Shown here: positions 223 to 31,828 of the stretch, one piece after another
Position numbering within the stretch: the stretch's first letter is position 1
How the letters are laid out: each line of letters opens with the position of its first letter
NCBI RefSeq assembly: GCF_003231495.1
Contig: NZ_PQWO01000012.1
Location: forward strand, 151,310-183,309
Direction of reading: 5' to 3'
Length of the DNA stretch: 32,000 nucleotides
From: Acaryochloris thomasi RCC1774
Lineage (GTDB): Bacteria > Cyanobacteriota > Cyanobacteriia > Thermosynechococcales > Thermosynechococcaceae
The notes under the pieces: model-generated
Seen by the model: only the letters and a program-made list of their open reading frames with translations
The model's database searches: none
Told to the model about the DNA's origin: nothing
Program-made: the position numbers and the translations under genes

Positions 223-2829
223 CTATAGCCAATTACCTACCAATATAAAGGGTGCCCAGAAAAAAGGAGCGTCATAATCACTCTCTGACAATAACGATAG
301 CTGAGCTTGTCTGAGGGCTTCAGCTTTAGTGATTCCTGGGATCTTCAGGGACTGATAAAACTGGCGCATGAAGGTTGCTGTTGATTGATCTCGAACGGAC
401 CAAAGCGTTGCCAGTGTGGCACGGGCACCTGAGCGAACGGCCAATCCGGCCAATCCCAGTACCGCTTTGTCGTCTCCCGCTGCTGTTTGACAGGCACTGA
501 GAACTAATAGCTCAATTGCTTGAGAATTTTGTGTTCCCTGTCTAGAAAGCAGTGCACTCAAATCTTGAATATTAAGTCGTCCTTCCCAGGTCAAAAGGAA
601 GGTCTCAGATGCGTTAGAACTAAACTGCCCGTGGGTTGCCAAATGGACAATGCTAGCGGGTTCTTCGGTAACGCGTTCGGCTAATTTCGGTCGCGTAAAG
701 TCTTGATTGAGGAGAGTGGTGCTCGGCAAGTTTTGGGAGAGTTGTTTTAGTTCGGAGGTGACAGCGGGGAGTGCACTAAACCCCTGGTGGGCAAGACTGA
801 CGCCGCCTGTAATTGCGCTGAGTTTAGTATCAGCCAATGGGCGAGGCGCTAACAACTGCAGGCCAGGGGAAAGCGCAAGGCGATACTTTTCAATCAGGTA
901 TTGAGTACCGTCGTGGAGAGCCGCCATCGGAATATTGCGCAGTTCACCGTCGAGAACAAACACTAAGGTTTCAACACCTGCAAAGGCCTGATCGGCTTCA
1001 GCAGAGCGAATCAGTAGATCATACATTTTCTGTGACCGCTGCAGCTGTGCCTCGCTATCATAGGCCAGACTTAAGGATTCTAGGAATGCATCAATTTGTG
1101 TTTCAACGTCAGCTTCAGCGTTGGGGATGCTGTAGTATCGCGGCGGTTGCTGAGGACGAGAGACAATAATAGCCGTCTGTTCAGGCAGGATAATTGAGTA
1201 AACAACGGCTGCGGTCGGATCGATTTGGTCAATTTGTACAGGCTGCAGATCGGCACAGGCTTCCCGGAAGAAGTTATCGAGTTCAGCAAGCTGTAGGGCT
1301 TCAATCAAGGCGCGCGCTTCGATTAAGTTGGCTCGACTGGGCTGTTCTTCTTCTAACAGTAGGGCTACAAGCTCTCGATAGGTAGGTTCAACACTCTCTC
1401 GAAAGGAGAACTGCACCTCTGAACGAATGGTGGCTAAATCGCTACGAAGCTGCTGCAGAGCCTGAGCCGCCTGACGATAGGATGCGATCGCAAGTCCACT
1501 ATTCCCCTGCTGCACCTGGAGTCGCCCCAACTGTGTAGCAGCCTGAGCGGTGATGTCAGTCGCTCTCATGCCTTGGGCACGTGCCAAGCCTTTTTCTGTA
1601 ACACCAATGGCCTGCTGCAATTGCCCCCGATGTCGGTAGAGTTTTCCCTGCTGAACTAAGGTGTGGGCGGCGGCTTGTCCATCCTGTAGTTGATTTGCAT
1701 TAGCAGCGGCCTGCTCTAGCAGTTGCAGGAGAGCATCACTTGATATCGGTGACGGACCGACCTCCCAGGCAAGCGTGGCATTTGCAAAGTTCACTGCACT
1801 GTACACAGCATGACGGCTAGGGGGAAGCCGGGAAATCTGGCGATACAGTTCGGGGACAAGCTGCATCGCTTGCTGCTGTTTTCCAAGTTCAAGATAGAGA
1901 CTCAGCTCATTTAACTGGGCGTCAATCTTCTCCCTCGGCTGAGTCGCTGCCTGAGCAGCCTGCTGGAAGAACTTCAGGGCCGCCTGGGTTTGCTCTAAAC
2001 CATGCATCGTGCTGCCTAGACTCAAGAGAATAGGGCTACTGGAAATTTTTTCTGCCTGTGCAATCGCAAGACTCTGTTCTAGGGCTTGGCGACTTGCTTC
2101 AAAGTCTCCGAGCTTTTGGTAGGCGATTCCTAAACTATGCAGTCCTCGCAGCTTCAATATCGAGTTGGGGGTGCTGTTGATCTGCTGGGTCAAGCCCGTT
2201 AAAAGCGTACGGGTCCGGCGATAAAAACCGAGCTGCTGCCAGGCTTGAGCCTGATTGATCTGAGTCCCTAAAGCACCTTGCGCATCGTTGGCACGCTCAT
2301 AATACTGATGGGCATTGTTCCAGGTTGCGATCGCATCTTCGGCTTTACCTGTAGAAAACTGCAGACTGGCTTTGGTGTTGAGCGTATGGGCCCACAGGAT
2401 CGGCTCTGCAACAGCATTTGATTCTAAGAGGCGTAGACTAGTTGCGATCTCATTTTCAGCAGCTTGCCACTGGGACAATTCTTGATAAGCCAATGACCCA
2501 TAACTCAGACTCAAAGCCTGATTGGCAAAATCTCCCTGGCTAGCATAGGTTTCTGCTGCGGCCTGAAAAGAAGTAGCAGCCTCTGCAAACAACCCGGCGG
2601 AGTAAAGACGCCTTCCCTCTTTTAAAAACTCTTCTTCAGACCGCTCAGTTTCTTTAGTCTGCTGCGCGAGAACAATGAAAGGTTCGGTACCGACAGAAGC
2701 TACCACAGGCTTTGAGGCTACCAGTCCCCCTATCCCCATCCAAATAAACAGCCAGAACAGAAGCGGCTGAGCGACCCTACGCTTAGAGGAATGGCAAACC
2801 CTATCTTTTTGGCTTGTAGAAGCTAACAT
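223..2829 (-). CDS. Membrane-anchored TPR-repeat / CHAT-domain (caspase-like protease fold) protein
   Basis: 868-aa ORF. N-terminal hydrophobic segment LLFWLFIWMGIGGLVA. Long central Ala/Leu/Gln-rich TPR-like helical repeats. The C-terminal ~280 aa carries the CHAT His/Cys dyad contexts HLATHGQF (His733, codon 631-633) and LVLSACQTAAGD (Cys780, codon 490-492). The ATG at 2829 overlaps the upstream gene's stop by 7 nt. Confidence 0.85.
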   Translation of the reverse strand: MLASTSQKDRVCHSSKRRVAQPLLFWLFIWMGIGGLVASKPVVASVGTEPFIVLAQQTKETERSEEEFLKEGRRLYSAGLFAEAATSFQAAAETYASQGDFANQALSLSYGSLAYQELSQWQAAENEIATSLRLLESNAVAEPILWAHTLNTKASLQFSTGKAEDAIATWNNAHQYYERANDAQGALGTQINQAQAWQQLGFYRRTRTLLTGLTQQINSTPNSILKLRGLHSLGIAYQKLGDFEASRQALEQSLAIAQAEKISSSPILLSLGSTMHGLEQTQAALKFFQQAAQAATQPREKIDAQLNELSLYLELGKQQQAMQLVPELYRQISRLPPSRHAVYSAVNFANATLAWEVGPSPISSDALLQLLEQAAANANQLQDGQAAAHTLVQQGKLYRHRGQLQQAIGVTEKGLARAQGMRATDITAQAATQLGRLQVQQGNSGLAIASYRQAAQALQQLRSDLATIRSEVQFSFRESVEPTYRELVALLLEEEQPSRANLIEARALIEALQLAELDNFFREACADLQPVQIDQIDPTAAVVYSIILPEQTAIIVSRPQQPPRYYSIPNAEADVETQIDAFLESLSLAYDSEAQLQRSQKMYDLLIRSAEADQAFAGVETLVFVLDGELRNIPMAALHDGTQYLIEKYRLALSPGLQLLAPRPLADTKLSAITGGVSLAHQGFSALPAVTSELKQLSQNLPSTTLLNQDFTRPKLAERVTEEPASIVHLATHGQFSSNASETFLLTWEGRLNIQDLSALLSRQGTQNSQAIELLVLSACQTAAGDDKAVLGLAGLAVRSGARATLATLWSVRDQSTATFMRQFYQSLKIPGITKAEALRQAQLSLLSESDYDAPFFWAPFILVGNWL

Positions 2830-5063
2830 GTTTGTGCTGCGTCTCCAAGGTCTGCTGAAACTAAGTTCGGTTGATGATTTACAAGCCTCATACGTCCTTG
2901 AGCATCACGGTGCCAGCCTGTTGCTTCTAGTAACGGGGCTGGTGTCACTGGCCTAGTAGCATATTCCTGTGAAGGATACCCTCGCTGCTGCGTCGTGCGA
3001 AAAGCCGAAAGGTCACGCACATCATTCCATAGCTGTGGATTACTCACTAAATCCTGAGGGCTGGAGGGGACACCTCCCCGACCTGCTAATACAAAGCTAT
3101 TGCCTTGCTTGGCTGCACAACCGATAGCAATCTTCTGACTTGGGTCGCTGACGCCTTCAGGCAAGTTGACAAGAGCTGAGTCTGGGTCAGAGACAAGTGT
3201 GTCGATTTCAATGCCTCCAGCAAGTCCAAATTCAGAGCTAGCATCAATATCATTGGTTCCATTACCTGCAATCGCCTGCCGTTCTGCGAAGCCAAACAAA
3301 CCTTGGGTATTAATAGTAATATTGCCCCCCATCCCCTCAAAAGCATTGGCAACGATATTGCTATCTTGACTCGGACTTGCAAAAACAAGACCTGCATCTA
3401 TTGCGATATTGCCGCCATCACCAGTCCCCCCAGCTTCTGCTGTAATCTGACTGTTGTTACTCAGCAGCAGCAGCCCTGAGACTTGCAGATTGATATTGCC
3501 GCCTCTACCAACTTCTGTCTGTGCATTAAGAAGGCCTTGATCAAGAGTTAAGGTATCCGATGTGATGTTGAGAGTGCCTGCGGCTCCAGATCCTGAACTC
3601 GTAACGACAACTTGCGCACCATCTCTGATCGTTAATTGCGGAGTATTGATACTTAAGACTCCACCAGCACCGGAGCCATCAGTTGCAGCGGATAAGTTAC
3701 TTGGTATTGGAACTGGTGAGCCAATACCAGAAATTTCTATCAGCTCAGAGGCGTTAATGACTATATCGCCTGCCTTTCCCTGGCTAAGAGTGCCAGAAGA
3801 GATAAAACCTCCGTTGCGGATGAACAGCTTCTGAGTATCAATCAGGATATCTCCTCCGTTACCAGTTACTGGTGCATTTATTACCTCCTGTTCATCGATA
3901 CCGACTTGCGAGAACAAAGAACTCGGCACACCATCAATTTCAACTGAGTCAGTTGCGAGAACTTCTATATTGCCGCCATTACCAAAATCGGTAGTAGCAT
4001 TGGAGATCTGTGTATTACTTAGGACAATGTGCCGACCTCTGAGTCGAATCGTCCCACCAGCGCCACTAGCATCGATGGAGGCCAGATCGCCAAACAAAGC
4101 TGGAACCACAGAGGGATCGAGAGGACCCAAACGAATATCTTGAAAGCTTTCAACCAAGCTGTAGTCAAGTGCCCACCCTTGATTGACCTCAGTCAAGCCA
4201 ACAAAGCTATTTCTATCAACACTACCAAGCTCAACCCGTCCTCCTAAAGCAGTAAGATGTCCACCTTCAAACATCACCTCCCTCCCGACAAGAACCAACG
4301 CATTACCTGGCCGTACCTGCAAGCCAACTGGATCCCCAGATGGAGCCAAGCCCAGGGGAGATATGTTAGTAATGGGCATTGCATTAGATTGATTGGTGAT
4401 ACCTCCCGGAGCTTCCCCAAACTGCAAGCCAATGGGAGAATTAACTGTCAATAGCGGAGTTGCTTGCGAGGATGCGGCACTAAACACCGTGCCGTCTGCA
4501 AAGGTTAAATCACTAGCAGTAGTTCCAAGGAACGAACCACCAATATCAAGAATTGCATTTGGGCCAAAAATGATACCGTTTGGATTGATCAAAAAAAGAT
4601 TAGTGGCTCCCCCAACCTGCAAAGTGCCATCGATATTGGAAATAGAGCTACCTGTCACCCGGCTGATTATATTTTCGACAGATGTATTGCCAGGCAGACG
4701 AAAATTTGCAACCTCACCCGTACGAATAGAAAATGCCTCAAAACTATGAAATAGATTGCTGCCGCGCTGAATACCACCCGTAATCTCTACCGACGACCCA
4801 GCGGTGCTGACTCGCGTTGACAGTGTACCGTCTGGCGCAGCTTGCGCAGTTGACGGGCAAGCGCCCAGTAAGAGGTTTCCTCCAATACATATCCCGCAAC
4901 ACAGCCAAGAGTGAATCCACTTATTGGCAACACGAACATTACTTAATAGATACACCTTAGTTTCTGTGAGATATTTCTGACAGCTTCCTGGAAGTATACC
5001 CACATTTGTATTTTTGCCAACATTGAGAACAAGGCAGAATCGCAAAACATTGCAAACTTGCAA
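2823..5063 (-). CDS. Filamentous-hemagglutinin-like exoprotein (TPS / haemagglutination-activity domain followed by beta-helix repeats)
   Basis: 746-aa ORF. Residues ~80-190 (nt ~4494-4826) carry TPS-domain hallmarks: NLFHSFEAF, ISRVTG and INPNGIIFG. The rest is periodic G-G-(N/D)-I type repeats (GNGGNIEV, GNGGDILI, GKAGDIVI, GRGGNINL, GDGGNIAI, GMGGNITI). The C-terminal motif is NSFVLAGRGGVPSSP. Signal-like core WLCCGICIGGNLLLGACPSTAQA. The ATG at 5063 is probably too far upstream; an in-frame GTG at 4955 is an alternative start. Confidence 0.85.
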   Translation of the reverse strand: MQVCNVLRFCLVLNVGKNTNVGILPGSCQKYLTETKVYLLSNVRVANKWIHSWLCCGICIGGNLLLGACPSTAQAAPDGTLSTRVSTAGSSVEITGGIQRGSNLFHSFEAFSIRTGEVANFRLPGNTSVENIISRVTGSSISNIDGTLQVGGATNLFLINPNGIIFGPNAILDIGGSFLGTTASDLTFADGTVFSAASSQATPLLTVNSPIGLQFGEAPGGITNQSNAMPITNISPLGLAPSGDPVGLQVRPGNALVLVGREVMFEGGHLTALGGRVELGSVDRNSFVGLTEVNQGWALDYSLVESFQDIRLGPLDPSVVPALFGDLASIDASGAGGTIRLRGRHIVLSNTQISNATTDFGNGGNIEVLATDSVEIDGVPSSLFSQVGIDEQEVINAPVTGNGGDILIDTQKLFIRNGGFISSGTLSQGKAGDIVINASELIEISGIGSPVPIPSNLSAATDGSGAGGVLSINTPQLTIRDGAQVVVTSSGSGAAGTLNITSDTLTLDQGLLNAQTEVGRGGNINLQVSGLLLLSNNSQITAEAGGTGDGGNIAIDAGLVFASPSQDSNIVANAFEGMGGNITINTQGLFGFAERQAIAGNGTNDIDASSEFGLAGGIEIDTLVSDPDSALVNLPEGVSDPSQKIAIGCAAKQGNSFVLAGRGGVPSSPQDLVSNPQLWNDVRDLSAFRTTQQRGYPSQEYATRPVTPAPLLEATGWHRDAQGRMRLVNHQPNLVSADLGDAAQTC

Positions 5064-19986: not shown

Positions 19987-21312
19987 ATGAAAAAAGTCTT
20001 TGTCCTAGATACCAATGTGCTGTTGCACGACCCCGCCGCAATGCATCAGTTTGAGGACAACGACGTGGTGCTGCCGATGACGATTATCGAAGAGCTTGAT
20101 CGCTTCAAAAAACAGCCAGAAGAAACCGGACGCAATGCTCGTCAGGTGTCGCGCGAGCTAGACGGTCTGCGCCAGCAGGGAAATCTATTTGAGGGCATCG
20201 TCCTCGAAGGCGGCGGCAATCTTAGGGTGGCACTCTGCAACCGAGAAACCTTACAGGAACTGCCTCCAGAGCTAGAGCGCGACAGAGGGGATAACTCTAT
20301 TTTGGCAGTGGCGCTAGAGCTGCAGCGCCAGTGTAATTGTCCGTTAGTCTTGGTAAGTAAGGATACGAATCTGCGTCTGAAGGCGGATGCCCTCAGTGTG
20401 GCTGCCGAAGATTACGAAACGGACAAGGTAAATGTTGGCGATCTCTACACCGGCATCTCTGAAGTGATCGTGGATGCCGAGTCCATCAACAATTTGTTTA
20501 AGCAGGGTGGCGTGGATTTAGACGGTCCCTTCTTACCCAACCAGAGCCTAACGCTGGTGGACTCCGTCAATCCAGCTCACACAGCCTTGGCCGTGGTCGA
20601 CGGCCATAGCGGTCAGGTGCAGCCCCTCGCTAAAATTCCCCACGCCGGCATCTCACAAGTGATTCCACGCAACCGAGAGCAGCGCTTTGCGATTGAGCTA
20701 CTGCTGCGCGATTCGATTTCTTTGCTCACGCTGGTAGGCAAGGCAGGCACCGGGAAGACCTTACTTGCGATCGCAGCCGGTCTGCAGCAGGTGGCCGATG
20801 AACAGCGCTACAGTCGCCTATTAATTGCTCGCCCCAATATTCCCATGGGGCGTGACTTAGGCTATCTGCCCGGAGATATTAAAGAGAAGCTAACCCCGTG
20901 GATGCAGCCCCTCTATGACAACTTTGATTTGATCTTTGGCACCCAAGACACCACTGGCCAACCCAGCCACTGGCGGCGTGGCCACGAAGAACTCATGGAG
21001 CAGGGTTTACTGCAAATTGAACCGCTGACCTACATTCGTGGCCGCACGATTCCCAAACAGTTCCTAATCGTAGATGAAGCTCAAAATCTAACCCCCCATG
21101 AAGTCAAAACAATTCTGACCCGTGCGGGCGAGGGAACAAAGGTTGTGCTGACCGGCGACCCTGAACAGATTGACAACCCCTATGTCGATGCAGCCAGCAA
21201 TGGTCTCACCTACGTCGTCGAAAGATTTAAAAAGGAGCCACTCGCGGGGCATGTGACGCTGCATCATGGCGAGCGCTCAATGTTAGCAGAACGAGCCGCC
21301 GCGCTCCTGTAG
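19987..21312 (+). CDS. PhoH-like ATPase with N-terminal PIN domain (PhoH2/YlaK type)
   Basis: 441 aa. PIN-like start [13 protein letters not shown]...TIIEELD, P-loop GKAGTGKT, Walker B IVDEAQN, and GDPEQID. Confidence 0.9.
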
Positions 21313-24212: not shown

Positions 24213-24619
24213 GCACAAAAAGGAAGGATCAGTGACTTCATTATAGAGTGGGCCTTTGACTTTCAGGGAGCCTAAGGCAAATCCCCACGATTTCACCTTT
24301 CGAGCATCTCGCTCATCCTCTGCTAACCCAATATCTGACAATTACAAGATAAGAACACGAACATCATCGGCCGTATATACGACAAGCTTATTTTGATTAA
24401 GGAAAAATTAATTTTCCCGAAATAAAAAACTTCAAAACCTTAGGTCGTTACGACTGTTATAAAAGTTATTTGTTTTGCCAGATATAAATATTGCGCTCTC
24501 CAAGATTTAAAGACAGAATGAGGATGCGAGATGCTCTATTTTTAATGAATAATAAGAAAGCATTCGGACATGCGGTGGGGCAACGTTCAGATCAAGTTTT
24601 AGAACAGGGGAACCCAATA

Positions 24620-25261
24620 ATGAGAATAATCAGCCCAGGGCTATTATTGGCTCTAGCAAGCGTGCTGGCCGTGGCCACATCCGTCTCTGCAGAAGACAAT
24701 AAGGCCGCTTCATTAGCCCCCAATGGTTCCATTCAGCCTGCAGGGGGGCAGCTTGGTGGCGCTCCCCTTCCTCCGCCGATTAATCATCGTGCATTTCAAA
24801 AGCCAGAACTTTTAGACAACTATGGGTTGATCAAGGGCATTCAAAATGACAAGGTCTCTGTTCGGCTTTTAAATGGAGATATCAAGACGTATCTTCTCGC
24901 TTCAAACACTGTAGGCGCTAAGCTAAGGCGCGGCGGTCTCGTTGGATTTAGGACAAACATCAAGGGAGAAATTACCAGGCTTTCACCCCCTCAAGTTCGC
25001 AAGGTTTATACCGGCACTTTAATCATTGTCGACGGTCAGAAGATCGGCATGGTGACGCCTCAGGGTGACCGCTTCATCACCACATTAGCCAAGAATAAGA
25101 TTGCTCGGATGGGTTTAGCTCCCGGTCAACCCATTAAAATCACCCAATATCGAGGAACGTGGGCCACGAAGGTGTGTCAGCCAGGAGCACTCAATGATGA
25201 TGATTCTTTCCCGATCCTGGCGGAGCAAGGGCGTGGCACTATTATTCCTCAAGAACAGTAG
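24620..25261 (+). CDS. Secreted protein of unknown function, paralog family P (C-terminal ~128-aa module)
   Basis: The ORF track starts at TTG 24491. The ATG at 24620 gives a clean signal peptide, MRIISPGLLLALASVLAVATSVSA, preceded by GGGGA. The C-terminal module (nt ~24809-25192) is ~70% identical by eye to that of the next gene. Confidence 0.75.
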   Translation: MRIISPGLLLALASVLAVATSVSAEDNKAASLAPNGSIQPAGGQLGGAPLPPPINHRAFQKPELLDNYGLIKGIQNDKVSVRLLNGDIKTYLLASNTVGAKLRRGGLVGFRTNIKGEITRLSPPQVRKVYTGTLIIVDGQKIGMVTPQGDRFITTLAKNKIARMGLAPGQPIKITQYRGTWATKVCQPGALNDDDSFPILAEQGRGTIIPQEQ

Positions 25262-25803: not shown

Positions 25804-27270
25804 ATGAACAAAAGAATTTACTATACAGCTCTCACACTTGCGATCACGGGAATCTGTACAGCTGCAACAGCTGTCGCCGCCGCAGACGAAAGTATTACCA
25901 CGACTTCTCCATCTCCTATAGATTCTTACGCCGATCAGAATCTTCAGGGAGAGATACTTGTAGCCTCTGCTCCTCTATCAGATGCTGAGACAACAGTTAC
26001 AAGCTACTCTAAGCAGCCTAAGCATTTAGAGGGACCTAATATTCCTCCCCGAGTCTTAGCTTCTCCTGATCTCCAACCTCTCGCAAGACTAGATATTGAA
26101 AAGACGCCTATTACAAATGGAGTAGTAGAAGTTTCTACGTCAAACATTGACTTCTCAGCAACGCTAACCTTCAAACCCTCTGCACAGACAATCGCTGAGA
26201 TCCAGGCACTAGAATCAAAGACATCTCACAGCTTTGACAATAGTGCATCTTTACTGGCTCTGGCTTCAGAAACTGTTGAACCAGCCAACGCAGGCATTAG
26301 GTCACAGGTAGTTGAAACACCAGAGCCTGTTGTACAGAACATCAACTTCCCAACAGCTCCAACATTCACTCCTTCCGCACAGACAATCGCTGAAATTCAA
26401 GCTCCAGAGTTAAAGACATCTCACAGCTTTGATAGCAGTGCATCTTTACTGGCTTTGGCCTCAGAAATCGTTGAAGAAACTAATACTGAGTCCGAGGTGC
26501 TGAAAGATGAAAAAACGGAAGCTGTTGTCTCAGACATTAACTTACCAATAGTTCCAACTTCCTCCGCCATGGCACAAGCCATTCCTGAATTTCAAGCACC
26601 CGCAGTTGAAGCTGACCAATCTGTTGAACATGGTGCTGCATTACTGAGACCTTTAGCACCAGGCCTTACCGCAGAACCTAAACTAGAAAATTCAGCCACC
26701 ATTCAAAGGAATAGTGTTGCAGATGCAGTAGTAGCGCCAGCGCCAAAACAAACACCTACGCTACAAAGCAATCTTGATAGGGCCCCCATAACTCCAAAGT
26801 CATCAGAAATTTTGGATAACTATGGATTAGTCAACTCTATCAAAGGCAATAAAGTCTCGGTTCGTCTCTTAAACGGAAAGAATAAAACCTACTTGCTAGC
26901 TTCTAATTCCGCAGGGAGTCAAATCAGGCGTGGCGGCTTAATGGGTTTTAACACGGATCGCCGAGGTAGAATTACGCGTCTCGCGCCTCCTAAGATCAAA
27001 AAGATTTACCAAGGCACTCTAGTTATCGTGGAAGGGACAAAAATTGGCATGGTGACACCTGAAGGAGAACGTTTTATCACAACGCTTTCGAAGAGAAAGA
27101 TTGCTCACATGGGCCTAGCGCCTGGACAGCCGATCAAGATCACTCAATACAGTGGAACTTGGGCCACAAAAGTTTGCCGTCCGGGAGTATTAAGCGATCG
27201 CCAGATTTCATCTGATGCGATGCAGAGGCAAAGAAATTTCTTGAGGGGTGAAACCTCACCAAAATCTTAA
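25804..27270 (+). CDS. Secreted repeat protein of unknown function, paralog family P
   Basis: 488 aa. Signal peptide MNKRIYYTALTLAITGICTAATAVAA. Three 65-aa repeats in the S/T/P/A/E-rich middle. The C-terminal module (nt ~26809-27192), ILDNYGLVNSIKGNKVSVRLLNG...ITQYSGTWATKVCRPG, is shared with the 24620 gene. Confidence 0.8.
   Translation: MNKRIYYTALTLAITGICTAATAVAAADESITTTSPSPIDSYADQNLQGEILVASAPLSDAETTVTSYSKQPKHLEGPNIPPRVLASPDLQPLARLDIEKTPITNGVVEVSTSNIDFSATLTFKPSAQTIAEIQALESKTSHSFDNSASLLALASETVEPANAGIRSQVVETPEPVVQNINFPTAPTFTPSAQTIAEIQAPELKTSHSFDSSASLLALASEIVEETNTESEVLKDEKTEAVVSDINLPIVPTSSAMAQAIPEFQAPAVEADQSVEHGAALLRPLAPGLTAEPKLENSATIQRNSVADAVVAPAPKQTPTLQSNLDRAPITPKSSEILDNYGLVNSIKGNKVSVRLLNGKNKTYLLASNSAGSQIRRGGLMGFNTDRRGRITRLAPPKIKKIYQGTLVIVEGTKIGMVTPEGERFITTLSKRKIAHMGLAPGQPIKITQYSGTWATKVCRPGVLSDRQISSDAMQRQRNFLRGETSPKS
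26143..26676 (+). repeat. Three tandem 195-bp (65-codon) repeats inside the 25804 gene
   Basis: Units begin at residues N114, N179 and D244. The first is NIDFSATLTFKPSAQTIAEIQALESKTSHSFDNSASLLALASETVE. The second is NINFPTAPTFTPSAQTIAEIQAPELKTSHSFDSSASLLALASEIVE. The third is degenerate: DINLPIVPTSSAMAQAIPEFQAPAVEADQSVEHGAALLRPLA. Confidence 0.75.
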
Positions 27271-27739: not shown

Positions 27740-28141
27740 TTACTTCCCCTCGTATTCAAAGGATTTAATAACGGTAAAATCGTAGGTTACTTTTCCCTTT
27801 GGCAAATCATACTGAAAATCTGAATAGATTTCATTGTAAGCCGCAGCGTACTGTGGCAAAAACAAGTAGTGATAGAATCCTTGGGGAGGGAAGAAACTAG
27901 AGCCAAATCCATTGAGGCCAAACCCAAACCCTCCGGCAGCAAATACATTTCCGGAAAATCCACCCGCTGTAAATGCATTACCGGAAAATCCACCTACAGA
28001 ATTTGCAGGTAGGAAAAATGCCTCGGCAGGCGTTGCCTGAGGAGAAGTAGACTGACCAAAGATAATTTGCGCGTTGGCCCCATTTGTAAACGATGCCAAG
28101 GCCACCGATAGAGTTGTTAACGCAAGTACAGGAACTTTCAT
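27740..28141 (-). CDS. Secreted Gly/Phe-repeat protein (hypothetical)
   Basis: 133 aa. Signal peptide MKVPVLALTTLSVALASFTNGANA. Decapeptide repeats GGFSGNAFTA / GGFSGNVFAA / GGFGFGLNGF (nt ~27902-27994). Aromatic-rich C-terminal part ending VTYDFTVIKSFEYEGK. Confidence 0.65.
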   Translation of the reverse strand: MKVPVLALTTLSVALASFTNGANAQIIFGQSTSPQATPAEAFFLPANSVGGFSGNAFTAGGFSGNVFAAGGFGFGLNGFGSSFFPPQGFYHYLFLPQYAAAYNEIYSDFQYDLPKGKVTYDFTVIKSFEYEGK

Positions 28142-28385: not shown

Positions 28386-28832
28386 CTATCTGCCTCGCGG
28401 TCCTACCTGTGGCTCTGGACTACTCCGTCGAGGTCCGCGATCTCCACTGGCACCCGTTGTGACATTGGTTGTATGCACAAAATCAGCATAATCAAAAGAT
28501 TCACTGAATTCGTAGACGGTGGTTGTTAGCCTTTCTCCACGCTCTCTCGTTATAGAGGTATTTATAGTGCCGTTATCAGAAACGGTTGTAGTTGTGGCAC
28601 CATTGGCCCGATTAGAGGTATGACTGGAGTCACGTTGAGAATCAGTGGTGATAGAGAAGCCATTTTCACTCGTTTGTTCCCTTGTCACAACACGGTTGTT
28701 ACGCTCTGCATGCCCCTGTGGGCTGACAACGAAGTTCATCACAGTTGTGCCAGAAGCATTCTGTGCCAGGCTTGGCAATACAAATGTCAAGAGCCAAAAA
28801 GGTGAAAGCACAAGAACATATTTGGGTTTCAT
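28386..28832 (-). CDS. Secreted Thr/Ser/Asn-rich protein, distant member of the GFDF family
   Basis: The ATG at 28832 gives the signal peptide MKPKYVLVLSPFWLLTFVLPSLA; the ORF track starts 18 codons earlier. The segment RERGERLTTTVYEFSESFDYADFVHTTNVTTG aligns by eye with REQGTVLKNTTVRVQESYEFTGFQESHRVTAG of the 29852 gene. Confidence 0.6.
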   Translation of the reverse strand: MKPKYVLVLSPFWLLTFVLPSLAQNASGTTVMNFVVSPQGHAERNNRVVTREQTSENGFSITTDSQRDSSHTSNRANGATTTTVSDNGTINTSITRERGERLTTTVYEFSESFDYADFVHTTNVTTGASGDRGPRRSSPEPQVGPRGR

Positions 28833-28949: not shown

Positions 28950-29783
28950 CTACTGCCGTGCTTGAACACTTGATTCCTGAGTGCTAGCCGTTGCGGGTCG
29001 CTGCAGCTGTGCCGGCTGAACTGGTCGCTGCGGCTGAGGTACGGCCTGCTGTTGAACAGGTTGAATGGGCTGGCCTGACTGCTGCTGTACAAAATTTTGA
29101 TTCGTAGCAGACGGCTCATTGATAAGCTGCTCAGCTTGCTGTCGGGAGACGGGCTGGACTTGTTGCTGGCCCGCTTGCTGCTGTCGAGAAACAGGTTGCG
29201 CTTGCTGTTGACCCAGTTGTGGCTGACGGCCTCGGGCATTACGATTATTCTGCTGTGGCGCAGCACCAAATGGGCTGGCACCAGGCTGCGGAACGGTGAC
29301 AGTTGGGCACTCAAGGCCAGCAAGCTGATTAAGATCTTCGTAGCTAATCTTGATTCCAGATTTAATCATTTTGGAATAGTTACTAATGACTAGCAAACAA
29401 GTTTCCAAAGACGCTCTGGCTAATTGTGTCTTTGCATATGCTCGGCAGGTATCTACACCAAATGACTTGGTATAGGTAAATGAGCCACCAATAGAACCTG
29501 TATCGAAGGGACCGATTCCATTACCAAAAGCAGATAGCGCAATACCAGAGCTGGAGCAGTCAGCGATACCATTACCAACAACACTTCTGCCTAGAGGGAA
29601 TGAATTCACTTGTGTATTAACAAGCGATCCCTGCTGGTTTAGATCAACGACAGGATTCGCCGTTGAGTTTGCATTGTTGGGAGCATCAATATTGTTTGTG
29701 GTAGCCTGTGCAGACACTTTCCCTGCAGTACACAATAGCAAGCCAACAACTGAAGCACCCGCCATTAAATGACGATAATTCAT
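28950..29783 (-). CDS. Secreted 4-Cys protein with Q/P-rich C-terminal tail (hypothetical)
   Basis: 277 aa. Signal peptide MNYRHLMAGASVVGLLLCTAGKVSA. The mature N-domain is G/S/N-rich with Cys76, Cys113, Cys129 and Cys159. The tail from residue ~165 (nt 28953-29291) is about one third Gln (36 of ~113 by my count). Confidence 0.7.
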   Translation of the reverse strand: MNYRHLMAGASVVGLLLCTAGKVSAQATTNNIDAPNNANSTANPVVDLNQQGSLVNTQVNSFPLGRSVVGNGIADCSSSGIALSAFGNGIGPFDTGSIGGSFTYTKSFGVDTCRAYAKTQLARASLETCLLVISNYSKMIKSGIKISYEDLNQLAGLECPTVTVPQPGASPFGAAPQQNNRNARGRQPQLGQQQAQPVSRQQQAGQQQVQPVSRQQAEQLINEPSATNQNFVQQQSGQPIQPVQQQAVPQPQRPVQPAQLQRPATASTQESSVQARQ

Positions 29784-29851: not shown

Positions 29852-30259
29852 TTAAAAGTCAAACCCGGCTGTAACTCTGTGACTTTCCTGGAAACCAGTA
29901 AACTCATAAGACTCCTGTACACGAACCGTTGTGTTCTTAAGTACAGTGCCTTGCTCCCTGGAATAACTTCTGGATGTAACGTCAAAGTAGGTGTCTTCTT
30001 GGACGTTGCGGCCATCTTCGACGTAGGTAATTGAAGTTTTACCTCGCTCACGCTTTACCGCAAAGGCATCAGCTTCGCGCTCGCCATTATAAACTTCTCT
30101 AACATTGAGCCTAGTTTCTGCCTTGCCATTTGTGATGACCCGCCGACTTTGGCTATTCCCAACATAAGCACTGCCTGCTATTGCTGGCAGTGAAGCTACA
30201 AGCCAAGAGAAACAGATAAGAGGGAGGAATCTACGGCATTTCATTTTAAACACCATCAA
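29852..30259 (-). CDS. Secreted small beta-rich protein, GFDF family (divergent copy)
   Basis: 135 aa; the likely start is the MKCRRF ATG at 30244. Signal peptide ...WLVASLPAIAGSAYVGNS. The C-terminus ESYEFTGFQESHRVTAGFDF matches the two copies downstream in coordinates. Confidence 0.7.
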   Translation of the reverse strand: MMVFKMKCRRFLPLICFSWLVASLPAIAGSAYVGNSQSRRVITNGKAETRLNVREVYNGEREADAFAVKRERGKTSITYVEDGRNVQEDTYFDVTSRSYSREQGTVLKNTTVRVQESYEFTGFQESHRVTAGFDF

Positions 30260-30389: not shown

Positions 30390-30815
30390 CTAGAAGTCGA
30401 AACCAGAAGTCACGCGGTGAGTCTTGTCGAAGCCAGAGAAGTCGTAGGACTCATGGACTGCAACATCAGTTGTATTTTTGAAACGACCGTGCTCACTAGA
30501 CCAGCTGCTAACACTAATATCAGCGACATCAACTTCTGAGAAATTAGTCTCACGCCAAGAGCCAGCAACATCACCCTTCTCAGTGTAATCAGTTGTTGTT
30601 ACGCTCCACTCATTCTTCACCGCATCGGAGCCGGCTGAACGAGTCCCTTTATAGACCTCATGCACCTTAACCTTAGTATCTGAATGGCCGTTGTAAGTAT
30701 TCTTTAGGTTGAAGCTGTTCTCAACGTAGGAACTTCCAGCCAAGGAAGGAAGAGCTGCAAAACCTACGAGAATTGCAGAAAGAGGAAGAACTCTTTGAAG
30801 TTTCATAATATTCAC
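30390..30815 (-). CDS. Secreted small beta-rich protein, GFDF family (cassette copy 1)
   Basis: 141 aa. Signal peptide MNIMKLQRVLPLSAILVGFAALPSLAG. About 82% identical (25 mismatches of 141 by my count) to the 31043 copy. Ends FSGFDKTHRVTSGFDF. Confidence 0.8.
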   Translation of the reverse strand: MNIMKLQRVLPLSAILVGFAALPSLAGSSYVENSFNLKNTYNGHSDTKVKVHEVYKGTRSAGSDAVKNEWSVTTTDYTEKGDVAGSWRETNFSEVDVADISVSSWSSEHGRFKNTTDVAVHESYDFSGFDKTHRVTSGFDF

Positions 30816-31042
30816 TACTGAATAACTGCTTTAGAAAATAGAGAAGGGCACGTCGCCTTCACATACACTGATAAACTCAACAGATCTTGACCTGAGCAAT
30901 ATAAGGAATCGCTTTAAATCGGGATTAACCTCAATAGGTAGTTGCAGAAACACTACAGAATCAAGACAATGAACGTCTTAAACTTTTGCTACCTGTTCAA
31001 AACTATCCCGGTATTGCTCAGGCGATATGACTAAAGAATTGC

Positions 31043-31468
31043 TTAGAAGTCGAAGCCAGAAGTCACGCGGTGAGTCTTGTCGAAGCCAGAGAATTGGTAG
31101 GACTCATCCACTGCAACTTTTGTTGAATTAATGAATGCACCGCTTTCCTCGGACCAGCTGCTAACGCTAATATCAGCGACATCAACTTCTGAGAAATTAG
31201 TCTCACGCCAAGAGCCAGCAACATCGCCCTTCTCGTTGTAATCAGTTTTTGTAATACTGTATTCATCCTTGGTCGCATCAGAACCAGCAGAACGAGTACC
31301 CAGATAAAGCTGATTGACATCAACATCAGTTTTAGAATAGCCGTTGTAAGTATTCTTTAGATTGAAGCTGTTCTCAACGTAGGAACTTCCAGCCAAAGAA
31401 GGAAGAGCTGCGAAGCCAACGAGAATTGCAGAAAGAGGAAGAATTCTTTGAATTTTCATGATACTCAC
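31043..31468 (-). CDS. Secreted small beta-rich protein, GFDF family (cassette copy 2)
   Basis: 141 aa. Signal peptide MSIMKIQRILPLSAILVGFAALPSLAG. Same architecture and identical C-terminal 16 aa as copy 1. Confidence 0.8.
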   Translation of the reverse strand: MSIMKIQRILPLSAILVGFAALPSLAGSSYVENSFNLKNTYNGYSKTDVDVNQLYLGTRSAGSDATKDEYSITKTDYNEKGDVAGSWRETNFSEVDVADISVSSWSEESGAFINSTKVAVDESYQFSGFDKTHRVTSGFDF

Positions 31469-31698
31469 TACTAAATGATTGCTAGAGAAAATAGAGCAGG
31501 AAGAAATCTTCCCCTCGAAAATATGGCTAAATCTACAGATTTCAACCTGAGCAATACAAGGAATCGCTTTAAATCAGGATTAGCCTCAATAGGTAGGTAC
31601 AAATAGCACTACAGAGTCAAGGCAATGAGCGCCTTAAACTTTCGCTATCAGTTCAAAACTATCCCGGTATTGTTCAGGCGATATGACTAAAGAATCGC

Positions 31699-31828
31699 TT
31701 AGAAGTCGAAGCCAGAAGTCACGCGGTGAGTCTTGTCGAAGCCAGAGAATTGGTAGGACTCATCCACTGCAACTGTTGTTGAATTATCGAATGAACCGCT
31801 CTCTTTAGACCAGCTGCTAACGCTAATA
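31699..31828 (-). pseudogene. 3' fragment of a third GFDF-family cassette copy
   Basis: Encodes only ...ISVSSWSKESGSFDNSTTVAVDESYQFSGFDKTHRVTSGFDF plus a stop. Homology to copy 2 ends abruptly after 31828. An in-frame TAG lies just upstream, and there is no start codon or signal peptide. Confidence 0.75.

Follow-up and report, generated by a model that had tools for sequence, protein, structure and literature searches.

The small secreted proteins encoded towards one end of a 32,000-nucleotide stretch of the Acaryochloris thomasi RCC1774 genome (contig NZ_PQWO01000012.1, positions 151,310 to 183,309 of the forward strand; the whole stretch is called the window below) raise the question of how neighbouring gene copies come to be identical through several blocks and strongly divergent in three short patches. 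Copy 1 (W1, C1752_04109, 30390-30806, 100% identical to P0001) and copy 2 (W2, C1752_04110, 31043-31459), both on the minus strand, encode 138 amino acids each and are 83% identical. Only the 3' part of copy 3 (W3) lies in the window (31699-31828, minus strand, 42 codons and a stop); it is W2-like, with 90% amino acid identity. An earlier note, referred to here as the original prediction, had read the pattern as hypervariable patches on the exposed face of a beta-strand, shaped by diversifying selection for recognition, evasion or specificity. Minus-strand translation reproduces every block and patch that it quoted. The explanation which we regard as probable is a different one, at once structural and evolutionary, in which the mosaic is one of ancestry laid over a two-faced structure.

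This explanation has two layers. As regards structure, the tolerated substitutions would all fall on a free face, which would give the look of valines kept while charges are flipped. As regards history, W1 and W2 would descend from two old paralog types; gene conversion in RCC1774 would recently have homogenised the 5' end together with the upstream spacer, codons 79-103 and the 3' end, and only codons 41-78 and 104-125 would retain the old type-specific sequence. The evolutionary pattern would then be an ordinary one, in which a two-faced beta-strand and partial gene conversion mimic hypervariable patches, and the case cautions that diversifying selection is not readable from amino acid patterns alone. 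Of greater value, though a by-product, is the family (family A below), a set of very rare, unannotated and lineage-restricted secreted proteins.

The patches and the two faces of the protein

W1 begins with a Sec signal peptide, MKLQRVLPLSAILVGFAALPSLAG, followed by a mature all-beta protein of about 114 amino acids (12.8 kDa, pI 5.2) whose variable face is of the basic type; mature W2 has a pI of 4.4 and a variable face of the acidic type. On the minus strand of copy 1, patch 1 occupies 30648-30686 (codons 41-53, HSDTKVKVHEVYK), patch 2 30582-30620 (codons 63-75) and patch 3 30441-30497 (codons 104-122), and the equivalent positions in copy 2, 653 nt further on, are 31301-31339, 31235-31273 and 31094-31150, respectively. 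Compared with synonymous differences, the amino acid differences between W1 and W2 are enriched in the patches (Fisher p=5e-5). The mature proteins differ at 22 positions, all within the two predicted strands, and 21 of these fall on one residue parity, odd in 41-75 and even in 88-122 (binomial p=1.1e-5), which is also the parity that varies across the whole family. Many of the patch differences are charge reversals needing two or three nucleotide changes per codon.

The alternation extends to the whole family, where mean column entropy is 0.55 bits on one parity and 2.07 bits on the other (Mann-Whitney p=2e-11), and the period-2 pattern runs without phase slip through residues 28-78 and 89-123. 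The conserved parity is nearly invariant (STVVEYGRASAKESTT.FEDAI.SSEGF.TVVEYF) in proteins which are only 45-50% identical overall. Family-wide, the conserved face reads S-T-V-V-E-Y-G-R-A-S-A-K... in strand 1 and F-E-D-A-I...E-G-F-N-T-V-V-E-Y-F in strand 2, and at the termini (27-40 and 123-138) conservation extends to both faces. The conserved face is charged (E, R, K, E, E, D, E, E), and neither face is hydrophobic enough for a membrane.

An AlphaFold2 (AF2) model, computed from a 21-sequence alignment, consists of the signal-peptide helix and a single hairpin (E25-80 / E83-137), with no other helix and with predicted local distance difference test (pLDDT) scores of 70-83 in the strands. Covariation, measured as mutual information with average product correction (APC) in a 44-sequence alignment, is strongest along the anti-diagonal i+j=163 (z=3.65), with 161 and 159 to its side; the pairs that covary most are 54-109, 78-85, 55-108, 68-95 and 69-94. 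Three cross-strand pairs of glycine and an aromatic residue occur (40-123, 54-109 and 38-125), and it is at the predicted hairpin tip that nearly all differences in length between family members occur, among them a +12 extension of a remote sub-family. The prediction for the mature protein, about 114 residues long, is one antiparallel hairpin of about 50 residue pairs, in which strand 25-80 pairs with 83-137. In register 163, patch 1 (41-53) faces patch 3 residues 110-122 and patch 2 (63-75) faces 88-100, and therefore the variable residues make one continuous face; the even conserved residues of strand 1 and the odd ones of strand 2 likewise come to lie on the same face. Thus, the structural part of the original prediction holds up well: a beta-strand with a constrained and a free face is supported by the family-wide alternation and by the AF2 and covariation register, and the patches do cluster on one face of the AlphaFold model, patch 1 opposite patch 3.

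Selection, gene conversion and paralog types

Selection was estimated as omega (dN/dS, the ratio of non-synonymous to synonymous divergence) by the pairwise method of Nei and Gojobori (NG86) in the six pairs formed by four genes, namely W1, W2 and two orthologs, genes A and B of L006, a related genome of metagenomic origin with the same gene order. Over all six pairs, omega is 0.15-0.53 in the patches of the original prediction and 0.04-0.11 in the blocks, while variable-face codons, defined a priori, give 0.24-0.81 and conserved-face codons 0-0.06. The top variable-face value, 0.81, belongs to W1-W2 (pN 0.41, pS 0.47); presumed orthologs give 0.39-0.49, and no value above 1 occurs anywhere. 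By these counts purifying selection is extreme on the conserved face and relaxed in the patches, and positive selection is not demonstrated. The diversifying selection originally proposed is unsupported because dN/dS, which had been named as its check, stays below 1 both in the patches and on the variable face. Nor do the patches deserve to be called hypervariable, as their sequences are specific to paralog type and recur in L006.

The claimed invariance of the blocks survives in part. Block 2 (TRSAGSDA) shows five synonymous and no non-synonymous differences between W1 and W2, and its conservation is therefore taken to be selective. The EKGDVAG...SVSSWS block, also described as invariant, is identical in these copies, but seven of its positions are highly variable family-wide, and the blocks are partly a product of gene conversion.

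The evidence for conversion comes from several comparisons. Between W1 and W2, synonymous differences amount to 8/53 in codons 1-40, 79-103 and 126-138 but to 19/39 over the two stretches 41-78 and 104-125 (p=0.001 by Fisher's test), whereas in the other five gene pairs they are homogeneous along the gene (p>0.2). A Sawyer-type permutation over 140 polymorphic sites yields 13 concordant sites at nt 246-293 (p=0.012); the candidate gene-conversion tract, at 30514-30561 on the minus strand (31167-31214 in copy 2), is nt-identical in the two copies and covers 13 sites in a row at which the four genes are polymorphic. The upstream spacer of copy 1 (30807-31042, minus strand) is 82% identical to that of copy 2 (31460-31698), compared with 52-63% in other pairs, and for this reason the spacer is counted within the homogenised repeat unit of the array, which comprises a gene and the spacer before it, measures about 654 bp and shows 83% identity between W1 and W2. 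Moreover, W1 and W2 agree at seven sites of block 3 (positions 88-102) whose entropy across the family is 2-3 bits; two family members drawn at random would do so with a probability of about 5e-6. The gene-conversion test suggested with the original prediction, run here as permutation and as synonymous heterogeneity, thus supports W1-W2 tracts, and, as far as these sequences tell, the block identity of the two copies is partly recent gene conversion and partly constraint.

In the homogenised segments W1 and W2 are each other's closest relatives. In segment D2 (codons 104-125), pN is lowest for W1-B (0.14, compared with 0.21-0.28 in the other pairs). In segment D1 (codons 41-78), the values barely separate the pairs (W2-A 0.18, W1-B 0.19, W1-A 0.19, W1-W2 0.23), so that the link between W2 and A is carried mainly by shared motifs: W2, W3 and A have in common TDVDV.Q.Y, likewise in the form TDVDV.QLY in all three, and ESG.F.NST.VAVDESY. 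W1 and B, for their part, share SDT.V and GRFKN...ESYD. The net charge of patches 1 and 3 is +2/+3 in W1/B and -2/-3/-2 in W2/A/W3. Judging from motifs and charge, there are two old paralog types, a basic one (W1, B) and an acidic one (W2, W3, A), whose differences are maintained at the ortholog omega of about 0.4-0.5, and the picture is unlike that of an arms race at a surface. Complementary acidic/basic pairing of paralogs was also considered but rejected as a general rule and retained as an idea only, being true in two thomasi-like genomes and failing in the Thermosynechococcaceae loci.

Several points weigh against a mosaic of ancestry over a two-faced structure. The gene-conversion statistics come from four sequences and small counts, and the segment boundaries were partly picked after the data had been seen; with the a-priori division into patches and blocks of the original prediction, synonymous differences are 13/27 and 15/67, respectively. 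Pairwise NG86 omega is a coarse measure, dS is near saturation in some pairs, and episodic positive selection at single sites, beyond pairwise counting, may have taken place. On the structural side, the AF2 model is moderate (mean pLDDT 72.5; predicted template modelling score, pTM, 0.27, which is to be expected because the shape is a rod), and covariation and AF2 share a shallow alignment (Neff about 37) and are hence not fully independent.

Diversifying selection on an exposed recognition or evasion surface would account for the confinement of the differences to the exposed face, for charge reversals that cost two or three nucleotide changes and for a variable-face omega higher between paralogs (0.81) than between presumed orthologs (0.39-0.49), and the relatives on phage-like contigs, described below, hint at an interplay of host and virus. 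It is nevertheless improbable in view of an omega below 1 in all comparisons, of patch sequences common by type to two genomes and of patch regions whose synonymous sites have diverged as much as their non-synonymous ones, which marks these regions as old and not fast, because selection on amino acids cannot raise dS. Constraint acting without gene conversion, by which the blocks would be identical purely through functional invariance, agrees with conserved-face residues and termini that are invariant family-wide and with block 2, kept despite its five synonymous changes; we hold it to be quite unlikely, since the synonymous sites of the blocks are homogenised solely in W1-W2 (p=0.001), the family-variable positions 88-102 are identical in these two copies and even the non-coding spacers are 82% identical.

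The signal peptide and the alternating residues also recall small monomeric outer-membrane beta-barrels of the OmpX/OmpW kind, in which the patches would be surface loops or lumen residues, and a C-terminal aromatic beta-signal (-1, -3), which is not diagnostic alone, is present as GF[DS]F or GY[SN]F in nearly all core members. Such barrels are very unlikely, however, given that both faces are polar or charged and neither is hydrophobic, that parity is constant over 50 residues, that the single anti-diagonal signal of the covariation favours one hairpin over local hairpins, and that indels occur at one site; searches gave no matches to outer-membrane protein families. Finally, hypervariable-looking patches in a tandem array beside a mobile element might suggest programmed variation, generated by a diversity-generating retroelement, by silent cassettes or by phase variation. 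This is scarcely credible: there is no reverse transcriptase among those open reading frames (ORFs) of the window that were scanned against Pfam (a part of them), tblastn over the window finds the known copies and no further cassettes, the differences involve all four bases, and another genome has these patch types fixed as well.

Possible assembly and comparison with known systems

Beyond the mosaic of ancestry, a predicted single giant hairpin with one almost invariant face is an unusual architecture, and the question arises of what it could be for. The conserved face and the doubly conserved termini would pack many hairpins into a sheet, tube or fibre, assembled in the envelope or outside the cell, and the variable face would be solvent-exposed, with a charge differing between paralogs. 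The invariant face and the termini are inferred as assembly interfaces because a ribbon extending over about 165-180 Å cannot be free-standing. The partners of the hairpins would be the co-conserved secreted proteins of neighbouring genes B, D and E, with C possibly a minor subunit. A polymer function of the hairpin proteins, argued by analogy, is a tentative possibility. More doubtful is the full proposal that the A-B(-C-D-E) module represents a new kind of cyanobacterial envelope or extracellular polymer, whose single-hairpin subunit (about 50 residue pairs) would pack via its invariant face, with tandem acidic and basic paralogs tuning or alternating on the exposed face and with an A-B pair captured by, or originating in, large cyanophage-like viruses. 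The same instability of a two-stranded 165-180 Å ribbon on its own also tells against the explanation as a whole, as does the AF2 model of module protein B, which is unusable (pLDDT 46), and no assembly or secretion machinery is encoded nearby.

In the sense of "works like" and not of "is a", the closest analogue is the Microcystis CT pilus, with GvpA second. MrpC, the CT pilus pilin of Microcystis aeruginosa (PDB 9BTQ), is a 12.3-kDa, Sec-exported protein made of long hairpins that polymerise side by side as antiparallel sheets; the "dark" cluster to which it belongs is confined to cyanobacteria (PMC12397347). Both MrpC and the family A proteins are cyanobacterial, Sec-exported and of about 12 kDa when mature, with long beta-hairpins, and both are "dark" folds without homologs outside cyanobacteria; a further likeness lies in a pilin and a pilin-like paralog being encoded near other secreted beta-rich proteins, and in one exposed S/T-rich sheet surface. 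However, the family profile (A2) has 0 matches at E<=10 among all PDB chain sequences, the top 50 PDB matches of Foldseek do not include 9BTQ, and the A model has one hairpin, where MrpC has two, and is devoid of the C-terminal helix-turn-helix. Moreover, the CT pilus cluster includes an O-GlcNAc transferase / FkbM methyltransferase, whereas here no transferase domains were found and the neighbours are orphan secreted proteins and prfC. The CT pilus has been seen as a filament, while family A is known here from genes and single-chain prediction.

GvpA is likewise a small protein dominated by one long beta-hairpin; its subunits join laterally to form an uninterrupted antiparallel sheet whose two faces differ chemically (PMC12397347). 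It is, however, cytoplasmic, with flanking helices, a strongly hydrophobic face and the Pfam Gas_vesicle domain, in contrast to family A with its signal peptide, no flanking helices, a polar charged conserved face and no Pfam match.

Foldseek gave topology-level matches only (template modelling score, TM, 0.15-0.36), all of them to long hairpins from oligomeric barrels, namely the stems of beta-pore-forming toxins and phage tail knobs (lysenin 5EC5, aerolysin 5JZT, anthrax PA 3J9C, phi29/Andhra 6QZ9/8EGR). The likeness consists in very long two-stranded hairpins which exist only within oligomeric barrels; there, however, the hairpin is appended to a large globular protomer, whereas the A protein is hairpin entirely and has no hydrophobic belt. 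Membership of the aerolysin/lysenin-type toxins was ruled out, as globular domains are absent and the Foldseek matches are to the stem only. Curli (CsgA/CsgB) resemble the system in their small secreted beta-rich subunits and in the joint occurrence of a major and a divergent minor paralog (here the A copies and C), but family A has neither curlin repeats nor CsgE/F/G-type genes, its hairpin is antiparallel and not a beta-solenoid, and no module gene has a Pfam or NCBIfam match that would place it with curli or Fap.

With the long-hairpin pilus of Microcystis discovered in 2025, the A module becomes a concrete candidate for a further cyanobacterial surface structure that has gone unrecognised. 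It can be tested directly, because A. thomasi RCC1774 and A. marina MBIC11017 are culturable strains.

The array, the module and their distribution

The start codons of W1 and W2 are almost certainly the ATGs at 30806 and 31459, and not GTG further upstream, because the homologs all begin with MKLQ (MKLQ/MKIQ). In the spacers, a G+C-rich hairpin followed by a T-run is found on the minus strand at 30843-30860 (copy 1) and 31498-31513 (copy 2), 37-54 nt upstream of the ATG; the stem sequences differ between copies, yet both pair. This structure, which has no match in Rfam, might be a terminator between the genes or an element of the 5' leader.

The fragment of copy 3, which reads ISVSSWSKESGSFDNSTTVAVDESYQFSGFDKTHRVTSGFDF in minus-strand translation, does carry a patch 3 sequence of its own, as the original prediction had stated, but the cause of its shortness is interruption by an IS630-family element rather than plain truncation. 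Homology to the other copies ends at a TA (31828/31829), and the element extends from 31829. The segment 31829-32000 (minus strand), recognised by nt similarity as the end of the element (transposase C-terminus), runs past the window end and is 70.9-75.7% identical in nucleotides to four cyanobacterial plasmid loci, one of which is annotated as an IS630 family transposase. Judging from this junction, copy 3 is interrupted by the insertion and is not a deletion product. Furthermore, P0010 (C1752_06116), a 97-aa protein encoded on another contig of the same genome, ends in ...SEVDVAD-K, the exact copy 3 breakpoint; it is most likely the other, N-terminal half of W3, and the RCC1774 assembly is probably broken at this insertion sequence. 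Two further paralogs lie beyond those originally recognised. One is copy 0, a divergent paralog at 29852-30244 (minus strand, 130 aa, about 42% identity, C-terminal AGFDF), whose orthologs are a 134-aa protein of L006 and g3 of L001, and the other is a remote paralog at 28386-28832.

Family A is always found within a module of orphan secreted proteins, with one to four tandem A copies including the divergent subtype, and the arrangement A(x1-4)-B-C-D(-E) occurs in A. thomasi-like genomes, Thermosynechococcaceae (two loci), A. marina and Lyngbya confervoides. In the window, gene B (28950-29783, minus strand) encodes a secreted protein of 277 aa (240-277 aa across the module) with a conserved 4-Cys domain and a Q/P-rich tail. 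Gene C, on the minus strand, is the remote A paralog just mentioned, 148 aa long from MKPKYVL, with a C-terminal ...EFSESFDYADFVHTTNVTTG followed by a basic tail. Gene D (27740-28141, minus strand) encodes a secreted, Gly/Phe-rich protein of 133 aa with a conserved FFPPxGFYHY...VTYDFTVIKSFEY motif, GGFSGNAF repeats and a conserved C-terminal FFPPQGFYHYLFLPQY...VTYDFTVIKSFEYEGK motif; it has orthologs in L006 and L008 and a D-like counterpart at the same position in L013. Two E genes on the plus strand (24491-25261 and 25804-27270) encode secreted proteins whose shared C-terminal domain, 53% identical across 206 aligned residues, includes a conserved LDNYGL... core (about 135-170 aa; LDNYGL...GTWATKVC.PG). 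This domain recurs beside the module in other genomes, where E is often present. The 488-aa E protein contains an internal duplication of about 45 aa (TF.PSAQTIAEIQA.E.KTSHSFD.SASLLALASE).

The module adjoins prfC both in this window and in Thermosynechococcaceae. In L. confervoides it is co-directional. A second, diverged A-B-C-D module (L008, 6001-8202) stands beside a signal peptidase I gene in the same metagenome-assembled genome (MAG) as L002 (Thermosynechococcaceae), and therefore the whole module, and not gene A alone, has been duplicated. Searches of all the module genes, family A included, against Pfam, NCBIfam, PHROGs, PADLOC, PDB sequences and Rfam gave no match.

The family is very rare. 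Relatives amount to 20 clusters among 5.8e9 protein clusters and to 32 among 1.84e9 representatives, and 8 of 185,579 species genomes carry it, all of them cyanobacterial (Acaryochloris, Acaryochloridaceae, Thermosynechococcaceae, Lyngbya confervoides and a "Limnothrix" MAG). Three giant proteins in the representative search (P0036, P0045 and P0050) were set aside as repeat or compositional false positives, judging from their multi-stretch matches; P0036 has EGF and Flg_new_2 repeat domains, and P0045 and P0050 are essentially without Pfam match. The JGI label "phage-related tail fiber protein" on P0008 received no support from a PHROG search.

Embedded as it is in a conserved cluster of five orphan secreted proteins, the family is present on phage-like contigs too, as a remote sub-family whose homology spans the entire protein (hhalign probability 99.7%, E=3e-25) and which is found at L018 8001-9078, L019 8001-9033 and L007 84-902. 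Genes for ThyX, RNR, dCMP deaminase, MazG, dNMP kinase and HNH endonucleases are found on L018, to which contig L019 is related, and on L007 a GIY-YIG gene adjoins the family member. On L018 and L019 a gene with weak similarity to B (blastp E 2e-4 and 7e-6; hhalign probability 46%) comes immediately after the A-like one, so that the A-B pair seems to travel with viruses too. Neither the core family nor the remote sub-family had relatives when IMG/VR viral contigs were scanned, and GenBank phages yielded no match.

As to the rest of the window, a CHAT-domain/TPR protein (223-2829, minus strand) is encoded immediately downstream of a TPS (two-partner secretion) domain protein (2823-5063), the two genes (223-5063) being an unrelated secretion or protease pair at the opposite window end. 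A PIN-PhoH fusion is encoded at 19987-21312 on the plus strand, between the EPSP synthase and prfC genes.

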